DNA of 63,533 nucleotides, filler included, from Sphacelaria rigidula (Eukaryota): NCBI GenBank assembly GCA_964200075.2. It is 10 parts of 10 records of this genome, joined end to end, with 100 filler letters (N's around TTAATTAATTAA, not from the genome) between each part and the next. Parts side by side here need not be neighbours in the genome. Positions count along the whole stretch, not along the records: positions 6,365 to 12,628 come from CAXNAA020021139.1; 9 more parts are not named here. One strand, given 5' to 3'. The notes under the pieces are model-generated. The model did no database searches. It was given only the letters and a program-made list of their open reading frames with translations, and was not told where the DNA came from. This document shows, one piece after another, positions 5,877 through 62,812 of this stretch. Position numbers and translations under genes: made by a program. How positions within the stretch are numbered: position 1 is the first letter of the stretch; each line of letters begins with the position of its first letter.

Positions 5877-6264
5877 TCAATAAATAATGAAATAATGAAA
5901 TAATGAAATAATGAAATAATGAAATAATGAAATAATGAAATAATGAAATAATTGAATAATGAAATAATTGAATAATGCAATAATTGAATAATGAAATAAT
6001 TGAATAATTGAATAATTGAATAATTGAATAATTGAATAATTGAATAATTGAATAATTGAATAATGAAATAATTGAATAATTGAATAATGCAATAATAAAA
6101 TAATGAAATAATGAAATAATGAAATAATGAAATAATGAAATAATGAAATAATGAAATAATGAAATAATGAAATAATGAAATAATGAAATAATGAAATAAT
6201 GAAATAATGAAATAATGAAATAATGAAATAATGAAATAATGAAATAATGAAATAATGAAATAAT
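5877..6264 (+). repeat. 8-bp tandem repeat (AATAATGA/AATAATTG)n running into the contig end
   Basis: About 48 units read directly. Confidence 0.97.
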
Positions 6265-6364
6265 NNNNNNNNNNNNNNNNNNNNNNNNNNNNNNNNNNNN
6301 NNNNNNNNTTAATTAATTAANNNNNNNNNNNNNNNNNNNNNNNNNNNNNNNNNNNNNNNNNNNN
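6265..6364. other. Artificial contig-joining linker (44 N + TTAATTAATTAA + 44 N); first of nine
   Basis: Identical 100-nt spacers with stops in all six frames at 6265-6364, 12629-12728, 18993-19092, 25356-25455, 31719-31818, 38082-38181, 44445-44544, 50808-50907 and 57171-57270. Intervening contigs are 6264 bp (first three) and 6263 bp (rest), i.e. length-sorted unplaced contigs. Confidence 0.98.
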
Positions 6365-6920
6365 TGTGTCATGGTAGGCACAACTCGTGGTACATCGTAA
6401 GTGAGAACGGACTGAAGGAAAGTGAGCTCCTTGGGCGGCCCAGCTCGTATGTAGCGGCTTATATAGCCACCGCAATAATACCTGCGGGAAATTAGATACA
6501 CGTCCGCTTTTGAGCCGTCCCATCCAAGAGTTCCACATCGCCGTGACCCATCTCCTAAGCCATGTACAGCCCGTGCATTTTTGCAGGCGGTGTTTCACAC
6601 AAACTTGCCCACCCTCCCCGACACGCAACCGTTCTTTGCTCACCTACGTGTATTGCGTATGTGGTGCTGCATAGCGATCGCTGAGTCTTTCGGTGATGCT
6701 GTCTGGCTCTTCAGTTTGCACAACGATTTCTAGCTGGCTCATACTGTCTGACGTACAATCCCTGGGTTTTGTATTATTGAATACATCAATGTCAGATATC
6801 ATTGATACGACTGAGCCTGCTTTAGCATTGGCGTTGTGCCTCACCTGTTTTGTGCAATAACCTTCCTGCTGTTGCCCTATACTAAAAATCCATCCGCTCT
6901 CGATCCGTTCCGCACTTTTG

Positions 6921-6928
6921 TATAAAAG
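6921..6928 (+). promoter_or_regulatory. Possible TATA box upstream of the EsV-1-7 repeat gene
   Basis: TATAAAAG ~250-370 nt upstream of the candidate start codons; motif match only. Confidence 0.25.
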
Positions 6929-7197
6929 GGTCCCATCCCTTGGAATCATTTTGCGAGTATGTTGGTAATTGTCGGGGTCAGCTGACATGGAGCGTCGTTT
7001 GCGCTGACTGCAGGCGGCTACATTTTCCCGGGAGAATTTGCCGTAGAAGTAACGCCACTTGTTCCGCAAAGCGTTTCGACTTACTTTTACCCGTGTCTAA
7101 CAAGGTATTTCTGCCGTCTTGGTATTTGTGCTTCCGTGAGCAGTTGGTTTTCGTGGAAGCATGACACGAAGGACATGGTGGTCGACCTAGCCAACAA

Positions 7198-10100
7198 GTG
7201 TGCATCACGAAGAGCTGCTCCAAGCTGCCATCTCACGGTCTGCAGGGCTACGAATCGGAGTTCTGCTCCAAGCACGTCAAGGTGGAAATGGTGGAGGTCG
7301 TGCAGGAGAAGTGCGGCTACGATGGCTGCTCCACGAAGTCGTCGTATGGTATTGCGGGAGGTAGGATAGCGGAGTTCTGCTCCAAGCATGCCAGATCGGG
7401 AATGACGGATGTGCTGCACAAGACGTGCGGCCACGAGGGCTGCTCGACGCATCCGTCGTATGGTGTGACGGGAAGTAAGAAGGTAGAGTTCTGCCCCAAG
7501 CATGCGAGGTCGGGAATGACAAATGTGCTGCACAAGACGTGCGGCCACGAGAGTTGCTCCACGAAGCCAGCGTATGGTGTGGCGGGAAGTAAGACGGCGG
7601 AGTTCTGCTCCGAGCATGCCAGGTCGGGAATGGTGAATGTGTGGGGCAAGACGTGCGGCCACGAGAGCTGCTCCACGAAGCCAGCGTATGGTGTGGCGGG
7701 AAGTACAAAGGCGGAGTTCTGCTTCAAGCATGCCAGGTCGGGAATGGTGAATGTGGTGCTGAAGAAGTGCGACCACGAGGGCTGCTCCACGAAGCCGTCG
7801 TATGGTGTGGCGGGCAGCAAGAAGGCGGAGTTCTGCTCCAAGCATGCGAGGTCGGGAATGGTGAATGTGGTGCTGAAGAAGTGCAACCACAAGAGCTGCT
7901 CCACGAAGCCGTCGTATGGTATGGTGGGCGGTAAGAAGGCGGAGTTCTGCTCCAAGCATGCCAGGTCGGGAATGGTGAATGTGGTGCTGAAGAAGTGCGA
8001 CCACGAGGGCTGCTCCACGCACCCGTCGTATGGTGTGGCGGGCAGCAAGAAGGCGGAGTTCTGCTCCAAGCATGCGAGGTCGGGAATGGTAGATGTGGTG
8101 AACAAGAAGTGCGGCCACGAGGGCTGCTCCACGAAGCCGTCGTATGGTGTGGCGGGGAGTAAGAAGGCGGAGTTCTGCTCCAAGCATGCGAGGTCGGGAA
8201 TGGTAGATGTGATGCACAGGAAGTGCGGGTACGAGGGCTGCTCCACGACGCCCTCGTATGGTGTGGCGCGAGGCAAGAAGGCGGAGTTCTGCTCCAAGCA
8301 TGCCAGGCCGGGAATGATGGATGTGGTGAACAAGAGGTGCGGCTTCGACGGCTGCTCAACGCATCCGTCGTATGGTGTGGCAGGAAGTAAGAAAGCAGAG
8401 TTCTGTCCCAAGCATGCCAAGTCGGGAATGGTGAATGTAGTGCAGAAGAAGTGCGGCTACGAGGGCTGCTCAACGAAGCCGTCGTATGGTGTGGCGGGCA
8501 GCAAAAAGGCGGAGTTCTGCTCCAAGCATGCGAGGTCGGGAATGGTAAATGTGGTGAACAAGAGGTGCGGCTACGACGGCTGCTCCACGCACCCGTCGTA
8601 TGGTGTGGCGGGCAGCAAGAAGGCGGAGTTCTGCTCCAAGCATGCCAGGTCGGGAATGGTAGATCTGGTGCACAAGAGGTGCAACCACGAGAGCTGCTCG
8701 ACGTACCCGTCGTATGGTGTGGCGCGAGGCAAGAAGGCAGAGTTCTGCTCCAAGCATGCGAGGTCGGGAATGACAAATGTGGTGAACAAGAAGTGCAGCC
8801 ACGAGGGCTGCTCAACGCATCCATCGTATGGTGTGGCGGGCAGCAAGACGGCGGAGTTCTGCTCCGAGCATGCCAGGTCGGGAATGGTGGATGTGGTGAA
8901 CAGGAAGTGCGGCCACGAGAGCTGCTCCACGAAGCCAGCGTATGGTGTAGCGGGAAGTACAAAGGCGGAGTTCTGCTTGAAGCATGCCAGGTCGGGAATG
9001 GTGAATGTGGTGCTGAAGAAGTGCGACCACGAGAGCTGCTCCATGAAGCCAGCGTATGGTGTGGCGGGCAGCAAGAAGGCGGAGTTCTGCTCCAAGCATG
9101 CCAGGTCGGGAATGGTAGATGTGGTGAACAAGAAGTGCAACCACGAGGGCTGCTCCACGAAGCCGTCGTATGGTGTGGCGGGGAGTAAGAAGGCGGAGTT
9201 CTGCTCCAAGCATGCGAGGTCGGGAATGGTGGATGTGATGCACAGGAAGTGCGGCTACGAGGGCTGCTCCACGACGCCCTCGTATGGTGTGGCGCGAGGC
9301 AAGAAGGCGGAGTTCTGCTCCAAGCATGCGAGGTCGGGAATGGTAGATGTGGTGAACAAGAGGTGCGGCTTCGACGGCTGCTCAACGCATCCGTCGTATG
9401 GTGTGGCGGGAAGTAAGAAAGCAGAATTCTGCTCCAAGCATGCCAGGTCGGGAATGGTGAATGTGGTGCACAAGAGGTGCAACCACGAGGGCTGCTCAAC
9501 GCAACCGTCGTATGGTGTGGCGGGAAGTACAAAGGCGGAGTTCTGCTCCAAGCATGCCAGGTCGGGAATGGTGAATGTGGTGCGCAAGAGGTGCAACCAC
9601 GAGGGCTGCTCCACGCTTCCGTCGTATGGTGTGGCGGGAAGTGAGAAAGCAGAGTTCTGCTCCAAGCATGCCAGGTCGGGAATGGTGAATGTGGTGCACA
9701 AGAGGTGCAACCACGAGGGCTGCTCCACTCTTCCGTCGTATGGTGTGGCGGGAAGTGAGAAAGCAGAGGTCTGCTTCAAGCATGCGAGGTCGGGAATGGT
9801 AAACGTGGTGCACAAGAGGTGCAACCACGAGGGCTGCTCCACTCTTCCGTCGTATGGTGTGGCGGAAAGTAACAGGGCGGATCTCTGCTCCAAGCATGCA
9901 CCAGCGATAACGATAAATGTGGTGCACAAGAAGTGCGGCAGAGAGGGCTGCTCCACGATGCCATCGTATGGTGTGGCGGGGAGTAACCAGGCGGGGTTCT
10001 GCTTCAAGCATTCCAGGGCGGGAATGGTAAACGTGGTGGGCGAGAAGTGCGGTGAAAAGGAATGGTCCAAGTTCACTGTCGATAAGAGGCACACCGTTGA

Positions 10101-20741: not shown

Positions 20742-23700
20742 CTGCCGCGGCGGTGAAGAGGGGTCAGGGTTGAGGGGGGCGGGGGGGGCGAGACCAAAGT
20801 GAAACACGCATGAGGATGTGCGCACGGGAGATGGTGGGGAATCATATGTGCGGCCTACATAATCTCTCGTGGACGGGGGCCCAATTTACCGGTGGGCCGT
20901 TCGTTGACTATGTTGATTAAGCTGAGAAAATGAAATGTAGATAAAAGGGGTAGGAAGGGTGTCACAAAAGAGAGATGTCCTCTCGGGGCGTTTTGGGAAC
21001 TTGTGTCAACGGAAATGGGCGGCTGGGTTGTCGAACACAAGCGCTTGCTTTCCGGCGAGCAAGCCGCACGGAGTATGGTTCGGCATGACCCCCACAGCTG
21101 AATGGTGCGGGAGCCAAACTATATACCATGTTTTCATCACGAAGTTTTTGGTGCGCTGCTGTGAATACATAAGAAAAAAACAACTCATGAAACGCGTTGT
21201 ACACAAGCCACTTCACCACGGGCCACAGACATGCCCACACAGGACGCTGCCAAATTTCAATGGGCCACAAATACGAAGACGATGATGAATTATTTGCTCG
21301 TGACCTGCACGAGCCAGTCGCTAATGTTTTGCGGTGTGCCTTAATTGTACATCAATGTATACATATGCTTGGAAGTACATGTTTGCAGTATGTTGCGTAT
21401 TGTGTGGCGATATCAGCACGGTCACGTCCGGCTCTTCGCGATTGGATGCACATGAGTAATGTGAGTTTTTTTGTCAGAACTCCCTGCATGTTCGATGCCT
21501 GCTTTCATCACAAAACTACAAACGAAAAAAAAACTGAAATGGCACCGTAGTTGTTGCCAATGAAGTGACGGAAGGTGCTCCATAAAACAAAACGCGAATA
21601 CATGTACTTATAAGCGTGATCCTCACCCCACACTTAGTTTGTACGATTTTTTTGTTGACAAATCGGGACTTTTTTTCAGGCTTGCGAAGTAGTTACAGTT
21701 ATGGGGGTGAATGAAGGCCTTACCGACCAAAGATCCGTTGTCAACAAAAAAAATATGAACGCGAAGAGATACAATATTGAAGACGTATTGAAGACGAATT
21801 GAAGACGTCATTGACTGGTTGAACCTGTGCCGAACCTCTACCGAACAGAACACACGCTCCATCCGATGTTACCTAGGTTTAGTATGCGACAGCGGTAATT
21901 TTTCATCGCGTCGTTCTCGAGACAGGAAGCAAACCGGCCTGTGGCACTTCACAGCCCCCGCGCACACACACTAGATCTATTCAGTGCCGCGGAGTATTTG
22001 CTCAATTCGCAACAGCGAATCCGAAAAGCCCCCGAACGTCGAAGAAAACGCCTTTTTCAGTACATTTTGGCGGTTTGCAAATTGCTGCGGGCTCCGCGGC
22101 ACGCGTTACGGAAGTCCGCCGCGCCACTGAATAGTTCTGGTGTATAGGAAGCACACGCATCAAATCGCAGTCCAATCCTCTGCTTCTTCGCCGATAAATC
22201 TGCGTTGAAAAATCGGCATTTGCGGCTTCAGGAACAGCAGCGTTTGTCGACGTGAAAAATGGGGAATTCTCAAAAGTCCGATGTTTCGAAGCTCAAGAGA
22301 AAAGCGAACTCCCGCGTAGCATGGACTAAGTACAAGGAAAAAAACGCTCGAGACTTATCCTGTGGCCTGACAGCCGCGCGCAAGGTCAAGGCGGCGTCTC
22401 AACGCGGAGAAGGCTGAAAAAAAACTCAAGGCGGCCACCGAAAGGCTCAACGCGGTCACCGAAAAGCTTGACGCGCCTGTTTCATGTCAGAGTACTGGGT
22501 CCAGCGCATAAGCTAAGCCGGTGCGCCCACTTTTCGTTGTGGTCCTTTCGCCCTTTCACAGTCGGGAGACAGCGATGATGTTTTCCGTAACTGACTGTGC
22601 ATACTAATAACAATATGTGAACAATGCAACGTGGGGCAAGCTTCGTTTTGAAGGGTATGTGTATGCATCTTCCGTCCTGCCATGTGGTGCTTATTTCTTG
22701 TATGCGCTTGTGTACAAGGGACAATTCGTTCTCCCAACATAGAGCACCACGAACCATATAGTTTGCTCTGATCAAAATTGGCTGTGTTGTGTCTACTCTG
22801 TCGAGCGCACAAGCCAGGGTCTCAAGCGCTGTATTTTCTTTGCTTGATGCACTGCCTTTGACAGACCGAAGACAGCCATGACGTTTGCTGTCACAACTGC
22901 CTGTGTACATTGATAACGAGATGACAGAAGAAAACTATAAGACTGGACAGGCGGGATGTAAGCCACGTGCTGGTTTCCTCTGTGTGGCTGTACAAAGCAC
23001 CTTCGTGTTACAACAGCAAGTACCGGTCACCTTTCGAATTGCAGTGGGCAACGTCACACATGGAAGTCACCTGAGCGTACGTCGGACGGATCGGGCGCAG
23101 GAACCCACGTGTGAAAAGCGGTTTTGACCACTATCGGTGTATCGCACTTCACTGACTAATAACAGCAGCCCTGATGTTTGTTGCCACTGCCGCCTGAGTA
23201 AACTAACAACAATATGTAAACATCGCGGTTGGCAAGTTGCACTTTCTATTGAATGCATCGTTCCGGGACTATATACTACAACATAAAAACAAGCAAGGGC
23301 ATTTGCACCAACATGCGCATTCCAGCACTTGTTCTGTGCCGATGTCATGTGAAATGGATATGTGGGGGCCTTGATTACGCAGCGCTCCTTTTGCGCCGCC
23401 GTGGTGGTCGGCATGACACAGAAAGCAACGTGACGGTTCAACGCTGATAGCTCCAAACGTCTCGTGTCTTGTGTCGCAGAGGTAGAGTTTGCCGTTGACG
23501 GTTTGCTTTTAGGAGTGAAGAACACAAAAGTGATTCCTTCCACTCGTGCCACAACCCTGAGCCCATCGGGCCCATGAAGAAGTTGCTCTCCAAACCCGCC
23601 ATCACAGAAAGGTGCAGGGTATGCAATGAGCAGCCCAGCCGCACAGCGTGAACCGCTTTATCGTCGTCAACGTCGTCTACATCATTCTCACTTGTTTCAC

Positions 23701-33534: not shown

Positions 33535-33964
33535 CTAGGTCATCGTTTTTTATTCTCACGTTCTTTTCCTTGACGGAAACCATGATTGTGAGTGAGTTAG
33601 ATCATGTTGTGCGGGGTGGAGAACATTAACTCCGCGAAATGAGGGTGATCGTACTGCGTAGTGGTTAGTTGGTGAGGCACCCATGAGGCAGTTCCACCCG
33701 TGCCTGCCTCTGGAAGTGGCAGTACCAAAATTGACTCAATTGAGGTTGTCATCCATATTGAAGATACGTAGTGCGCCTCAGGTCGAAGAATCTCAGCAGG
33801 ATGCAGATCACTCGTGAGGCGACTCGCCGAACACATCACGGCCCTTCGTGCTTGGTCATTGCGCACCTGGTCCGGCGGAAACGCGGCGTGCTTCATCCCA
33901 GCTTTGTAGTGATGCGAAGTCAATGGTCTTATGACTACGGCATGCAAACTTGTCAGTGGCCCCC
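33535..33964 (-). mobile_element. Dispersed repeat family A, ~430-bp copy in the intron between exons B and C
   Basis: Colinear with 50953-51417 (AACCATGA, GGAGAAC, CATGAGGCAG, GGAAGTGGC, GGATGCAG, GCGACTCGCCGA, CTTTGTAG, CTTATGAC). Confidence 0.8.
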
Positions 33965-34011
33965 TCCCCCACTCCCCGCGCCCTCGATAAAGCAACACCC
34001 ATGTCGCCCAG

Positions 34012-34437
34012 GCCATCCAAGCCGCCGACGTCCACCGTCAAGTCGTGGAGAGGTGTCACCGCGAGCGCGTTGCCGGGGAATTCCAACTGCGTCATGAGCG
34101 TGCTGAGTGGGCATCCAAGCTGCGCCGGGAGCACGTCGCTGTGCAGCGAGCGGAGAAGGCACGGCGAAGAGCAGACGAGGCGGTCGAGCTGCGCCAAGAG
34201 CGCGCAGCTGTGCAGCGAGCGGAGGACAAGGCGGCGGCGGCGGAACGCGAGGTGGACAAGGCACGGCGAAGAGCAGACGTGACGGTCGAGCTGCGCCAGG
34301 AGCGCGCCGCTGTGCAGCGAGCGGAGAACAGGGCGGCGGCGGCGCAACACGAGGTGGACAAGACAAGGCGAAGAGCAGACGAGGCGGTCGATGCGGCGGA
34401 GGCTTGGAGAAAGGATCGCGCTGAGATCGCAGTCCAG
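34012..34437 (+). CDS. Coiled-coil protein, exon C with internal 34-aa tandem repeats
   Basis: CCCAG acceptor; 142 codons AIQAADVHRQVVERCHRE...ELRQERAAVQRAEDKAAAAEREVDKARRRAD (two near-identical units)...EIAVQ; GTGGGA donor. Confidence 0.7.
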
Positions 34438-35107
34438 GTGGGAAAGTGGTGGAAAACGGGGGGTACGGTAGGCAGGTGCGGCGGGCTGGGGTACAAACAA
34501 GCGGTTGTCCCATGCAGATCGAAAGTGCTGTGCACATCAAGTGTAGAGCGTTGTTCTTGAAACAAAGCCGCTCGTGTGCCCACCGTGGTGGATGCGGAGG
34601 TTAGCATCTTGTCCGAATGTGCATAGTTGTTAAGGTTATATATCCCAAATTTAGCACGAGTGCTCATGGCGATCAGACGAGAGCGGCATGTGCCAACAGA
34701 GGAGATAAAGAGTCCAACGTCTGTGACGAACGAAATAGCAACGAAAACAGCGAGGCACGTCCTGGCATGCGAGTACTTGTGCTTCGGAGCTGGTGTAGAC
34801 ACACTTGCAGCAAGGGGGCAAAGCATGGCCTACGGGTAACTTGATACAAGCTCCACAGAAATCCGTCAATTCGATTTGGGTGCAGCACCTTGCAGTAGTC
34901 GTCGTATTTTTGCGTCATGTACCGCACTTGCCAGGGTGCTCGCACCACGCTTCGCGGAGCTCACAAACGTTCGCAGTGGTTGTAGTCCTGTAGAGTAAGC
35001 GCGGCTCCACCTTGCAGAGCGTTTTGCCTTTGGTCTTGGGCTAGAGTACTTCTCCTATCCAACAGCGTCTGTCCCGTTGCTATTTATCCAACAGGTGCAT
35101 TTCATTG

Positions 35108-59110: not shown

Positions 59111-62100
59111 TGTCTTCCGAATCAACGGCAGCGTGGAGCCATTGTGGTTTGGTCTGTGTTGGATTCTTGCACCCATTTCACTATTCTGCCGGTGCAGATG
59201 GTTGAGACGCTGGAGCGGCAACTCCCGGGTGTGCCGCTGCGCATCCCGTTTTCGCTCGGGGCGCGGCAGGCAGTCACCGCGTCGGGTCAGCATGTTTCAG
59301 TCACGGAGCATACTGTTCCGTAGCAGCTAGCCTTCAGGACTGCTTGGGGGCTGGCGCCGTTGCCTCCGATCTCATTTGCGATTGTGCCAGGGTCGGATGG
59401 CGTTGTTCTTCTGGGGCTGCCGACGCTACAGGATCTAGGAGTCGACCCGTATGAACGATTGAAGGACTCCATCAAGACGCGGATGTCTCCGCCTGGTCCG
59501 CACGTGGAGACTCCCGCTTTTGAGGGCAGTGGTCGCGTGAGCTTGTCGATGGATGCTTTTCAGGAGGGTAGGGGGCAGGTGACCGAGGAGCGGGATGCGG
59601 CGGTGGAATGCTTAGTAGAGCGTGGCCCGGATATGTTCATGGACCCGGCGGAAGAGGAGTCCGCTCGGAATGGCGCGCTGGAGGAGAGCGTGACGGATGC
59701 TGTGGCGAAAGGCCTCAGCGTCCCCGAAGCGGAACGCCTGCGCGGCATCTTGCATCGCCGCGTCAACGCGTTTCGTCGTGTGATGCGGGGTGATCCCCCT
59801 GCGCGCGTGGAGCCCATGCGTGTCCAGCTGAACCTGGGGCATCCGCGGTGAAGGCGAAGCCGCGACGGTACGATCCTGTGAAGTCAAGTTGGTTGGCGTC
59901 GTGTATGGCGGCTTTTTTGGCGCTTGGGTTGGTAGTGCGGTACCTCCAGGCGGTATAGTTCAGCCCGGCGATGGCGGTTCCCAAGAAAGACCCGTTTCGC
60001 CTGGTTAGCGGCTACAAGGCCGTAAATGATCAGGTGGAGAAGTCGCCGGGTGTGATGCCCAATCAAGAGTCGGACATGCGTGATCTCTTGAGTGCTCGTT
60101 GTTTTGGCAAGTTGGACCTCCTGCAAGGTTATTGGCAGATTCCGTTGGCGGAGGAGGCGCAGGAGATTTTCCCAATCACGACGCCGTTAGCCTTGTTTAC
60201 CCTGAAGCGAGTATCGCAAGGCGTGTTGAACGTCACGGCATATTTTCAAGGTATCATGACAGACCTGCTTGTCGGCTTGAAATGCAAGATATGGGTGGAT
60301 GATGTATTTTTTTTTGCGGATACGGAAGACGAACTTTTAGACACGCTTGATGCTGTCTTGGTCCGTTTAGAAAATGTTGGTTTATTTGCAGCGGCGCACA
60401 AATGCACTTTCTTTGCTTGAACTCGTATGGTGTGGGAAAGTGTATTCACACGGACGCGTATCTCATGACCCCATCAGATTGCAAGGCTTGTCTGACATGC
60501 GGCGCCCGGAGACGGCCGCAGAACTCATGCAATTCTTGCAGGCCGTGAATTGGCTGTGTACCTCGTTGCCGCGTACGGCAGAAACCGTAGCTCCCTCGCG
60601 TTTTTTCCTCGAAGAACTCATGGCGGATGCTGCGAGGCGGACGAAGCGTGTTGTAAAAAACCGCGCGATTCCGTCTGCATCGTGGACGGAGGGTAGCTTG
60701 CAGGCGTGGGAGGCAGCGAAGGATCTGGTGGCTCACGCCGTGGCGCTGTTCCATCCTTGTCCTAATCGTCAGGTGCTAATGTTTCCGGATGCATCTGAGT
60801 GTCATTGGGGTAGTTTCGTCACGCAGGTGCCTAAAGCGGAAATGCAAAGACGCTTGCCAGTTGAGGACATGACGCATGAAGCGCTGGCTTTCCTCAGTGA
60901 TAATTTTATGGGTTCACAGTTGCGTTGGGTCACAATTGATAAGGAAGGTTTTGCTATCGTAAGCACTCTTCGTCGTTTGGAGCATCTGTTGTGGGATGGC
61001 GGGCACATCTTCACGGATCACCGGAATCTCGTGTATATCTTCAACCCGGAAGCGTGCGTTACGTCTGTGTCGAAAGTATTCGCACAACGTTTGGAGGGTT
61101 GGAAAGCTGTTCTTGGCCGGTACCGTTACTCGATTTGCCATATTTCGGGTGACCGTAACGCGTGGGGTGACTTTCTTTCGCGCTGGGTAAGTATTCCGGT
61201 TTTACCTGTGCGCGCTATGGCTGTAAATAGTCCGTGTGAACCTGATGACTCGATGCCGTCCAAATCTGTTGTCCGCCAAGCGCAACGAAAATACCTTGGG
61301 GCCGAAGATGCGGATGTGCAATCTTTCGAGTCGGACGTTGATACTGCTATCTTGGACAATGGAGGTGTGTTTCGTGTGCATTTGCGTGGCCGAAACGTTT
61401 TGTGGATTTCGAGTTCTGACAAGCAGTTGCAGGGACGTCTGATGATTTGCGCGCACATGCGCGACGCTGGGCATCGTGGTGTGGCTGCGACGCTCGTGCG
61501 TTTGCGAGAGTTTTGTGTCTGGCGGGGGATAGAAACTCATGTGCGCGAATTTGTCCGCCAGTGTCTTCTTCACTGTGCTGACTCGAGGGCGGGCGATGTT
61601 GTTCCCCGCCCGCTCGGCGAAACGGTCCATGGGACCACGCCGAATGAAGTCGTCCATTTTGACTTCTTGAACGTGGGCGAGAGTGGCCCGCTAGCTGTCC
61701 AAGCTTTGTCGGAGGATGCTGGGTTTCGATACATTTTGCTAACCATGAATGATTTGAGCGACGTTGTGGCTCTGGAACCAGTAGCAGTGTGCACTGCTGA
61801 ATCGACCGCTGCATCTTTGCTGAATTGGTGCAAAACTCTGGGGGTGCCGCGTGTGTGGGTGAGTGATACCGCCACGCATTTCAAGAATGCGATCTTGGCC
61901 CGATTGCGAGAGGCTGTGCGCGTTGATCACCAGTTTGCGATAGCGTATTCTCCGTGGTGTAACGGTACGTGCGAACGCATGGTCAAGGAAGTAGTTCGTG
62001 ATCTTCGCTCTATTCTTCTCGAGCAGCGGAGAGCGGTTTCCGAGTGGGTGGACGTGTTGCCGGCAGTGAAGTGGGAGCTAAATGCAGTGTATCGTCGTCG

Positions 62101-62812
62101 TTACGATAGTACGCCGTACCACGTGATGTTTGGTCGTGCCCCTCGGACGTCTTTCTCGGTGCTGGCGTCTTCGTTGGCGGGGGAATACAAGCGTGATGTT
62201 TTGGACGATGTTCAAATAAAGAGTGCATTGCAAGGAGTCTTGGACTTGCAAGAACGTTTCCACGTTCAAGTGCAGGAACGTGTTTCCACTGAACGTGCGC
62301 GTAGACGGGAGGGGTCCTCGTCGGGACTGGAATTGCCGAATTTTGAGGTAGGAGACTATGTCTTGTATGCACGCGTGCGTCGTTCGGGTGTTCCGCCCAA
62401 GTTGATGGCGACTTGGACTGGTCCATGGAAAGTGGTTGGTGCTCACAACCCGCACGTGTTCGAGATTCAAAACATTGTTTTCGGTCGTGTTCAGACTGCC
62501 CATGTAGCTCGTATGCATTTTTATGCAGACTCGCAGCTTAATGTTACGGCTGACGTTAAGGACATGTTCCAGCATGCTTTCAATCAGGGGCAATTTCAGA
62601 TGGCTGGTATTGTCCGAGTGGCAAAATCAGGCGATCGTCGGTTGATCGTGTTGGTCGACTGGGTTGGTTTCGAAGTTGAGGAGCGTACGTGGGAACATTT
62701 CAAGGATATTTTTGAGGCCGGTCCGGATTTCCTTAGGAAGGAGTTGCGTAAATTGCGCGTGACTCGTGCCGGTGCTGCTCGCATTTCGAATGAGTTTGGT
62801 ATTCAGTTGTGA
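59110..62812 (+). pseudogene. pol: Gypsy pol (protease, RT, RNase H, integrase, chromodomain), disrupted
   Basis: Protease-like LDSCTHFTIL (~59160). RT LDLLQGYWQ and KIWVDD (WVDD at 60292-60303). RNase H FPDAS...KEGFAI...TDHRNL. Integrase H-x4-H..C-x3-C with HFDF, VSDTATHF, NGTCER. Chromodomain LVDWVGFE..ERTWE. TAG at 59956, frameshifts near 59840 and 60415; last ~800 codons open. Confidence 0.93.

Follow-up and report, generated by a model that had tools for sequence, protein, structure and literature searches.

We analysed a window of 63,533 nucleotides (nt, filler included) from Sphacelaria rigidula (assembly GCA_964200075.2) and found in it a gene that carries a long tandem array of EsV-1-7 modules. 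The window, which is the whole stretch of DNA analysed, consists of 10 parts of 10 records joined with filler, and the part that holds the array (6,365-12,628) comes from record CAXNAA020021139.1. The open reading frame (ORF) of the array lies on the + strand at 7198-10668, stop codon (10666-10668) included, and is open for 1,156 codons. An earlier inspection of this DNA without database searches, referred to here as the sequence-only reading, had counted 24 exact C-x4-C-x16-C-x2-H modules of 38 amino acids (aa) and one degenerate module, and had proposed that they form a recognition code for nucleic acids. The motif scan and the translation confirmed this anatomy: the ORF contains 24 matches, the first at 7312 and the last at 9934, each exactly 114 nt from the next, preceded by a module that is one residue short. 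Chance alone would come nowhere near such an array. Tandem Repeats Finder (TRF) reported one array at 7256-10052 (period 114 nt, 24.5 copies, 86% matches, 0% indels, score 3644), and the Pfam family PF19114 (EsV_1_7_cys) matched the ORF in 25 stretches with E = 0 and 1230.3 bits against a cut-off of 25. A six-frame scan with a looser motif gave 25 matches, all within the array ORF, and no EsV-1-7 motif was found elsewhere in the window. Pfam matches to DUF1490 and Phe_ZIP on the same ORF were rejected, as no stretch of either passed by itself. The features of the gene are listed in the table.

Table. Features of the EsV-1-7 array gene, in positions of the window
Feature	Position	Strand	Evidence
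3' splice acceptor (cAG), probable	7141..7143	+	contig match start in runs X1, X2
5' untranslated part of exon, probable	7144..7287	+	TGA in frame, upstream ATGs 7161, 7175
Degenerate module 0, C-x4-C-x15-C-x2-H	7198..7311	+	translation
24 EsV-1-7 modules in tandem, 38 aa (114 nt) each; scaffold C1, C6, C23, H26	7312..10047	+	motif, TRF, Pfam, AlphaFold2
Non-repeat C-terminal tail, 206 aa + stop, conserved	10048..10668	+	64% identity to P0154 tail
RGTKRKH basic motif, putatively like a nuclear localisation signal	10234..10254	+	kept in paralogues

Counted along the module, C1, C6, Y12, G13, C23 and H26 are invariant in all 24 modules and K25 is kept in 22, so the YG and KH pairs are as nearly invariant as had been noted. 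Amino acid entropy across the 24 modules is highest at position 9 (2.27 bits) and then at position 36 (2.16 bits), and the residues that the sequence-only reading had listed for these two positions agree letter for letter with the translation. The next values are found at positions 2 (1.56 bits), 18 (1.55), 38 (1.38), 3 (1.35), 24 (1.18), 19 (1.14) and 35 (1.06). The lesser variation described earlier at positions 2-5 and 16-19 is therefore real, but that description passed over positions 38, 24, 35, 32 and 33, which are likewise variable within the array. The array is also basic, as had been supposed, with a pI of 9.39 and a net charge of about +3.25 per module. Each module most likely binds one zinc through C1, C6, C23 and H26, and zinc binding by the CCCH set of EsV-1-7 modules has been proposed in the literature.

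The gene belongs to the EsV-1-7 family, which is already known, and is a cellular member of the brown-alga type. This family has been described as virus-related and expanded in brown algae, and it includes IMM (IMMEDIATE UPRIGHT), which is referred to as a developmental regulator or as a protein of unknown function. In the literature examined, the EsV-1-7 domain is described only as a possible new class of zinc finger and no ligand is named; the earlier account was accurate on the viral relationship, the expansion in brown algae, the membership of IMM and the lack of a named ligand. The gene shares with the family and with IMM the same tandem C-x4-C-x16-C-x2-H-x12 repeat, with a Pfam match far over threshold; it has no other Pfam domain, as is reported for all Ectocarpus EsV-1-7 members; and its context in the window, which includes a CLN3-like ORF and a retrotransposon pol fragment, is cellular and not viral. 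It differs from them in three respects. First, it has 24-25 modules, whereas IMM has 5, and the 177 homologues retrieved have at most 12 (median 7); the array of 24 modules is at least double this maximum and is therefore an outlier. Second, its modules are unusually uniform, as the 86% nucleotide matches indicate. Third, its tail is common only to Sphacelaria-type paralogues. The gene is thus a new and unusually long member of a known family. Its nearest proteins are three S. rigidula products with 67-71% identity over five modules.

The tail matches no Pfam family. It aligns with the C-terminus of the S. rigidula paralogue P0154 at 64% identity (E 6e-77) up to the last residues, and the paralogues that share it carry 3-6 modules. 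Its basic motif recurs as VRGTKRK(R/H) in P0154 and P0107 and as VRGAKRKR in P0040. Signals of the K-R-K-R type are the basis on which we read this motif; it looks like a nuclear localisation signal (NLS), and the protein may accordingly be directed to the nucleus.

Several distant modules of the array are nearly identical. Of their 114 nt, modules 4 and 15 have 112 in common, and the pairs 8/17, 9/18, 7/16 and 10/19 have 111, 109, 107 and 106, respectively, which indicates that multi-module blocks have been duplicated within the array. Because of these duplications, the 24 modules are not independent samples. Nucleotide changes were counted by parsimony on a FastTree tree of the 24 modules, which was built from 114 nt and ignores recombination. 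The whole array showed 59.3 synonymous and 121.7 non-synonymous changes, corresponding to a ratio of non-synonymous to synonymous rates (dN/dS, omega) of 0.57. There were zero non-synonymous changes at C1, C6, Y12, G13, C23 and H26, and synonymous changes prevailed at position 27 (8 against 1 non-synonymous), position 7 (5 against 0) and position 10 (5 against 1). The scaffold of the module is under purifying selection.

The sequence-only reading implied that dN/dS at positions 9 and 36 should rise above the background. Measured against the array-wide dS, positions 2, 9 and 36 had omega values of 2.19 (P 0.011), 1.82 (P 0.045) and 1.83 (P 0.068), respectively, and none of the single-site values was significant after correction for 38 sites; position 2 had 12 non-synonymous changes and position 9 had 11. 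When positions 9 and 36 were pooled, omega was 1.82 against the global dS (P 0.0098) but 1.29 against their own synonymous changes (P 0.35), while the array without these two positions had an omega of 0.51, and the proportion of non-synonymous to synonymous changes differed between the two positions and the rest (Fisher P 0.029). Constraint at positions 9 and 36 is clearly weaker than in the background, and in this respect the expectation was borne out; their omega is not clearly above 1, and they are at most candidate sites of diversifying selection. No close orthologue was found, the best candidate having 51% identity over 37% of the query (635-2023 aa range), and the best local identity to a homologue was 71% over five modules.

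These results bear on the possibility that the array is a recent, runaway tandem expansion of little or no functional value. Positions 9 and 36 would then simply be the surface sites under least constraint, which drift from one round of unequal crossing-over to the next. Such a history would agree with an array at least twice as long as that of any of the 177 homologues, with the recent block duplications, with an omega at positions 9 and 36 that is compatible with 1, with the finding reported below that evolutionary rate explains most of the pattern of variation, and with the awkward translation start of the gene. However, the frame has stayed open for its full 1,156 codons, the scaffold has been spared non-synonymous changes while synonymous ones accumulated, omega is 0.51 outside positions 9 and 36, and the tail is conserved with a paralogue to the last residue. 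We consider a runaway expansion unlikely.

To place the variable positions in a family context, homologous arrays were compared in three ways. When 117 modules of 27 homologues were pooled, 14 positions exceeded 3 bits, and positions 9 and 36 did not stand out. Variability within single arrays was then ranked in the 76 arrays that had at least five modules, each module with at most two gaps and with C1, C6 and C23 present, 47 of which arrays belong to proteins with the nuclease-like domain described below. Position 9 ranked best (mean rank 5.9, among the top five in 47 of the 76 arrays), position 36 second (mean rank 9.5, top five in 26), and positions 7, 11 and 35 followed; the same positions were module-specific in the 47 arrays with the nuclease-like domain. 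Across the family, position 9 is mostly R, Q, H or K and position 36 mostly S, N, H or K. Finally, adjacent modules were compared in 622 pairs in exact register from 170 proteins, with the window array left out. Chance-corrected agreement between neighbours was lowest at position 9 (kappa 0.08), followed by positions 36 (0.11), 11 (0.13) and 35 (0.17), against 0.22-0.46 at the remaining 16 positions above 2.5 bits. Mutual information revealed that most variable positions are coupled to the same position of the next module, i.e. are array-specific; positions 9 and 36 showed no such coupling (z 1.7 and 1.8), and none was detected between the two of them (z 0.3). The claim that variation is concentrated at fixed slots thus extends to other arrays, and of the 20 positions compared these two agree least between neighbours.

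The same data were used to evaluate a strict modular code, in which each module would specify a base or a short motif mainly through positions 9 and 36, in the manner of the repeat-variable diresidues (RVDs) of transcription activator-like effectors (TALEs) or of C2H2 fingers. A code of this kind would account for the entropy maxima at these positions in the window array, for their two top mean ranks in the 76 other arrays, for their low agreement between neighbours, for the pooled omega of 1.82 against the global dS, and for the residues found there across the family, as R, Q, H, K, S and N are residue types that often read bases. Comparison between proteins argued otherwise. In collinear related proteins (65 of 200 candidate pairs kept, 60-97% identity, 341 non-independent module pairs), the mismatch was 0.62 at position 9 and 0.58 at position 36, against 0.63-0.67 at positions 4, 11, 25 and 29. 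Between proteins, the two positions evolve no faster than about a dozen others. In the 11 closer pairs (58 module pairs), the changes were spread across about 13 positions. Over all positions, the rate of change between proteins predicted the difference between neighbouring modules with r 0.89, leaving residuals of only z 1.4-1.6 at positions 9, 35 and 36. In addition, the local omega of 1.29 (P 0.35), the failure of any single site to survive correction, the 12 changes at position 2 against 11 at position 9, and the missing coupling between positions 9 and 36 all speak against a two-residue code, and we regard it as very improbable. The simplest reading is that positions 9, 36, 11 and 35 are part of a wider exposed, fast-evolving set and are the members of this set least in step along the array.

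Evidence on the ligand came from the relatives of the gene. A C-terminal domain of about 190 aa is present in 91 of the 170 homologues retrieved; in it, a CxxC...CxxC zinc ribbon is followed by the motifs RPD, hhhhExDExQH, CxCE..R and FIRxNPDxY, in this order. In all of the 12 domains aligned, residues D78, E91, D93, E94, H97, E105, R108, N127 and D129 were the same. When IMG/VR was scanned with the domain, at least 605 stretches matched and at least 543 loci were confirmed, many of them in metagenome-assembled genomes (MAGs) of giant viruses. For the count of architectures, 80 loci (L001-L080) were kept and 74 parsed; the domain shared its ORF with at least one upstream EsV-1-7 module in 71 of these 74, the commonest count being 8. 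The viral fusions usually have 5-12 modules (range 1-17 by motif count), and an example of a free-standing fusion ORF encodes 681 aa (L015:2576-4621). Some MAGs carry more than one copy of the fusion on different contigs (L030/L032, L023/L072 and L043/L046). In the ESM Atlas, the domain occurs in Nucleocytoviricota clusters together with PF19114, and one of these is automatically named 'Endonuclease (Fragment)'.

The predicted structure of this C-terminal domain has the order alpha-beta-beta-beta-alpha-beta. In an all-against-all structure search, the Vsr endonuclease 1cw0_A came first (Z 9.3, root-mean-square deviation 3.3, 112 residues aligned) and was the sole chain at Z >= 8 among 48,161, followed by the catalytic domain of I-Bth0305I (3r3p_B, Z 7.4), ngo0050 (6.9), a RAP module (6.7) and Hjc (6.2). 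The top rows of a Foldseek search were mostly nucleases of the PD-(D/E)xK type or other endonucleases (McrC, cap-snatching endonucleases, BspD6I, Hjc and R2), with a probability of 0.98-0.99 for McrC and with E >= 3e-3 for all matches. Weak matches in PHROGs pointed to a 'homing endonuclease' for 2 of 12 members (E 0.0076) and to HNH for 1 of 12 (E 0.0027). According to its best matches, the model of the C-terminal domain of the viral homologues would have a Vsr-like fold. Vsr itself has the catalytic residues D51, H64, H69 and D97, as stated in PMC3239194. The same source describes I-Bth0305I as a modular DNA-binding N-terminus joined to a Vsr-like C-terminus, and the viral relatives likewise combine a modular N-terminal region, presumably for targeting, with a C-terminal Vsr-like fold; they differ from I-Bth0305I in having zinc knuckles in place of NUMOD and helix-turn-helix motifs. 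They also differ from EDxHD endonucleases in that their domain, known from sequence and predicted fold, reads ExDExQH. The window gene is unlike both the EDxHD endonucleases and its viral relatives in that it has no nuclease. Its array is homologous to the viral arrays, with the same positions module-specific, but the viral proteins carry a zinc ribbon and an endonuclease-like domain, of which the window gene has neither, and their arrays of usually 5-12 and at most 17 modules are shorter than its 24.

A second fusion has been reported in Ectocarpus, where the Tc1/mariner transposase TcMar-2_Ec32 gained an N-terminal EsV-1-7 domain, according to PMC12477816. Together with the viral fusions, this lends support to the nucleic-acid role suggested by the sequence-only reading, whose interpretation as a whole is partly supported; its example of virus or transposon surveillance is not part of what these data support. 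Neither the nuclease fusion nor the module-specific positions were found described in the literature searched, which did not include Macaisne et al. 2017 or preprint supplements. The nature of the fusion partners also concerns the choice between DNA and RNA. A basic, cysteine-rich array of knuckles could bind RNA by analogy with CCCH and CCHC knuckles or with PPR and PUF repeats. However, the relatives have their modules fused to a DNA endonuclease fold and to a DNA transposase, and the array has no Pfam match to RNA-binding zinc families; an RNA-binding array seems to us very unlikely.

Modules 5-10 of the window array were modelled with AlphaFold2 from a 70-sequence alignment (A1), without metal. 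All 70 members of A1 match PF19114; Pfam matches among them to Zf_WRKY19 (5 members) and SBP (2 members) were too weak for use. The local fold was modelled with confidence, with a predicted local distance difference test (pLDDT) score of 89.4, and the predicted template modelling (pTM) score was 0.52, and because the latter is low, the placement of the modules relative to each other is not predicted. Regular structure is limited to strands of 3 residues, 19 residues apart, which each module has at positions 12-14 and 31-33; DSSP assigned two 3-residue helical turns and no helix of four or more residues. Each module is thus made of two 19-residue halves, each with a knuckle followed by a short strand. 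This spacing fits a weak 57-nt period (61-63% matches) that TRF also detected, and the 38-aa module may therefore have arisen by duplication of an older half-unit. Orphan half-sites, which could distinguish zinc sites within a module from sites between modules, were observed at array ends in 53 and 71 of 218 arrays, with degenerate end modules blurring the pattern. In sequence order, the module-specific positions 35 and 36 and then positions 2-4, 7, 9 and 11 of the next module all fall in the C-x4-C loop. The variable loop would thus be the one around the C-x4-C knuckle, with the C-x2-H loop being steadier.

The model also allows a comparison with known modular readers. TALE repeats are helical hairpins without metal. 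The EsV-1-7 array resembles them in its tandem, near-identical modules of about 34-38 aa with few module-specific residues. It differs in that its modules have no helices in the model and possess four invariant zinc-ligand residues; helical repeats of 33-35 aa, such as form the TALE superhelix, were not seen in the model, and no TAL-effector Pfam match was found. Moreover, its variation is not limited to two residues but includes positions 2, 18, 38, 3, 24, 19 and 35, and positions 9 and 36 lie 27 residues apart, whereas the specificity residues of TALEs are adjacent. C2H2 fingers have the spacing C-x2-4-C-x12-H-x3-5-H. The array is similar to C2H2 arrays of the KRAB-ZNF kind in its tandem basic zinc modules, in its variable positions of contact type and in the growth of the family by lineage-specific tandem amplification. 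It is distinguished from them by a CCCH ligand set with x4/x16/x2 spacing, and neither a recognition helix, as expected of a beta-beta-alpha fold, in the model nor a Pfam zf-C2H2 match was observed.

The interpretation that we tentatively favour, with a likelihood slightly short of even, is that the array is a DNA-binding domain, a nuclease-less relative of the targeting arrays of giant viruses, in which each module would make contacts through its variable loop. This is suggested by the two independent fusions to DNA-acting enzymes, the positive charge (pI 9.39) and the NLS-like tail. Several observations weigh against it. The window gene has no nuclease domain (a hidden Markov model of the 91 domains found nothing better than E 0.66, at -2.1 bits, in the six-frame translation of the window), and DNA binding by its array is for this reason inferred from its relatives only. 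The viral domain itself had no significant match by sequence in Pfam (best E 0.043) or the PDB (best E 0.14), and its model is of middling confidence (pLDDT 70.7, pTM 0.69). The array model had 0 matches in the PDB at E <= 0.001 by Foldseek (best E 1.1), and with VIA only one of 48,161 chains reached Z >= 2, a RING domain at Z 2.3; its weak likenesses are to protein-binding zinc domains (LIM, RING, PHD and B-box). Efficient translation is uncertain, with two upstream ATGs, an in-frame stop and a 5' exon of unplaced sequence, and none of the sequencing runs is recorded as RNA. Runs X1 and X2, which are discussed below with the gene model, have no cover over 6473-7120 and partial depth over 7121-7156, which was not taken as evidence.

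The structural likenesses raise the alternative that the array is a scaffold binding proteins or other ligands in the way of LIM, RING, B-box or PHD domains, with the variable loop tuning the choice of partner. The only likenesses of the array model, all weak, are of this kind or to the zinc-binding domain (ZBD) of nsp13; the function of IMM, a developmental regulator, is described as unknown, and the Ectocarpus EsV-1-7 genes have no other Pfam domain. However, all of those structure matches are non-significant, and the two independent fusions to DNA-acting enzymes and the strong positive charge point away from such a scaffold, which we consider rather unlikely.

In its anatomy, the protein starts with a short N-terminal part, continues with 24 zinc-knuckle modules of 38 aa that were amplified recently, and ends in a conserved tail that bears the NLS-like motif. 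The modelled chain is a string of short strands 19 residues apart, linked by two kinds of loop. If the DNA-binding reading is correct, each module would add contacts through its variable C-x4-C loop, so that a long array could read a long stretch of DNA. The brown-alga genes would then be descended from or related to a viral targeting arm and have no nuclease. A wider and more doubtful proposal is that EsV-1-7 is an unrecognised modular class of sequence-reading, DNA-binding zinc domain. Under this proposal, viral arrays would guide Vsr-like nucleases of the homing type to their targets and these proteins would be natural zinc-array nucleases, the algae would have kept the arrays as nuclear regulators such as IMM, the sequence preference of each module would be set by the C-x4-C loop (positions 35/36, 2-4, 7, 9 and 11), and 24 modules would read a very long or repeated target. 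The EsV-1-7 domain represents one of the largest gene-family expansions of brown algae, and its biochemical role has been open since IMM was cloned; the Vsr-like fusion in hundreds of giant-virus genes offers a concrete and testable role, namely DNA targeting. The viral fusions also supply short arrays from nature in which cleavage would serve as an inherent read-out of what a module recognises. A modular rule, if true, would provide a new programmable DNA-binding scaffold and would also explain how a virus-derived domain turned into a developmental regulator, while without such a rule the EsV-1-7 family would be one more lineage-specific zinc-finger expansion.

With regard to the gene model, the array frame opens, from stop to stop, at 7165, after the TGA at 7162-7164, and its earliest in-frame ATG is at 7288. 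This ATG is the likely translation start, as judged by the predicted product, which would begin with MVEVVQEK, encoded by the last 8 codons of degenerate module 0, and continue into the first full module; the four S. rigidula paralogue models P0030, P0107, P0154 and P0040 start alike, with MVNV(V/M/K)xxx and then the first cysteine. The two upstream ATGs open frames of 9 codons (7161) and 64 codons (7175, in a different frame). The exon that bears the array would start at about 7143/7144. Contigs of X1 and X2, two runs of one study that are RNA only by guess, match from 7143 on, just after CAG, and have 135 and 251 extra letters that match nothing in the stretch compared; the 30-mer adjoining the junction is absent from the window at up to 2 mismatches. 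In contrast, contigs of X5 and X7 read straight across 7110-7242, i.e. across the putative acceptor. These data hint weakly at a splice acceptor at 7141-7143; the 5' exon would then lie beyond the window or be hidden by a mask. On the - strand (7087-10472) and in other + frames, ORFs of up to 683 aa are also open across the repeat; they are a by-product of the stop-free repeat unit and not evidence of more genes.

Upstream of the gene, the summed contig depth at 6401-6472 is very high in all four runs (47,902 in X5, with about 50-280 on either side), and this segment is probably a high-copy repeat or the end of a transposon. A microsatellite, (AAATAATG)n, with about 48 copies occupies 5882-6264 and ends at the first run of N. 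Pairs of 44-nt N runs (6265-6308 and 6321-6364) recur about every 6364 nt (12629, 18993, 25356 and so on to 57171), and N runs of 10 nt occur at 13382, 16249 and 18394. The regular pairs resemble masking more than gaps of the assembly; one of them, which immediately precedes the gene, could conceal some of its 5' region.

Elsewhere in the window, an ORF at 19622-20851 (-) has a Pfam match to a part of the CLN3 (battenin) profile (E 9.7e-31) and is probably one exon of a host gene. An open frame of 813 aa at 60371-62809 (+), with matches to RT_RNaseH, RT_RNaseH_2 and Integrase_H2C2, is a pol fragment of a long terminal repeat (LTR) retrotransposon. The segment 52001-54000 shows a strong strand asymmetry (GC skew -0.295, AT skew -0.39), unlike the remainder of the window. 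Finally, a 102-nt tandem repeat (2.4 copies, 90% matches) at 34152-34391 lies inside overlapping long frames of the - strand (33856-34829) that belong to no Pfam family.

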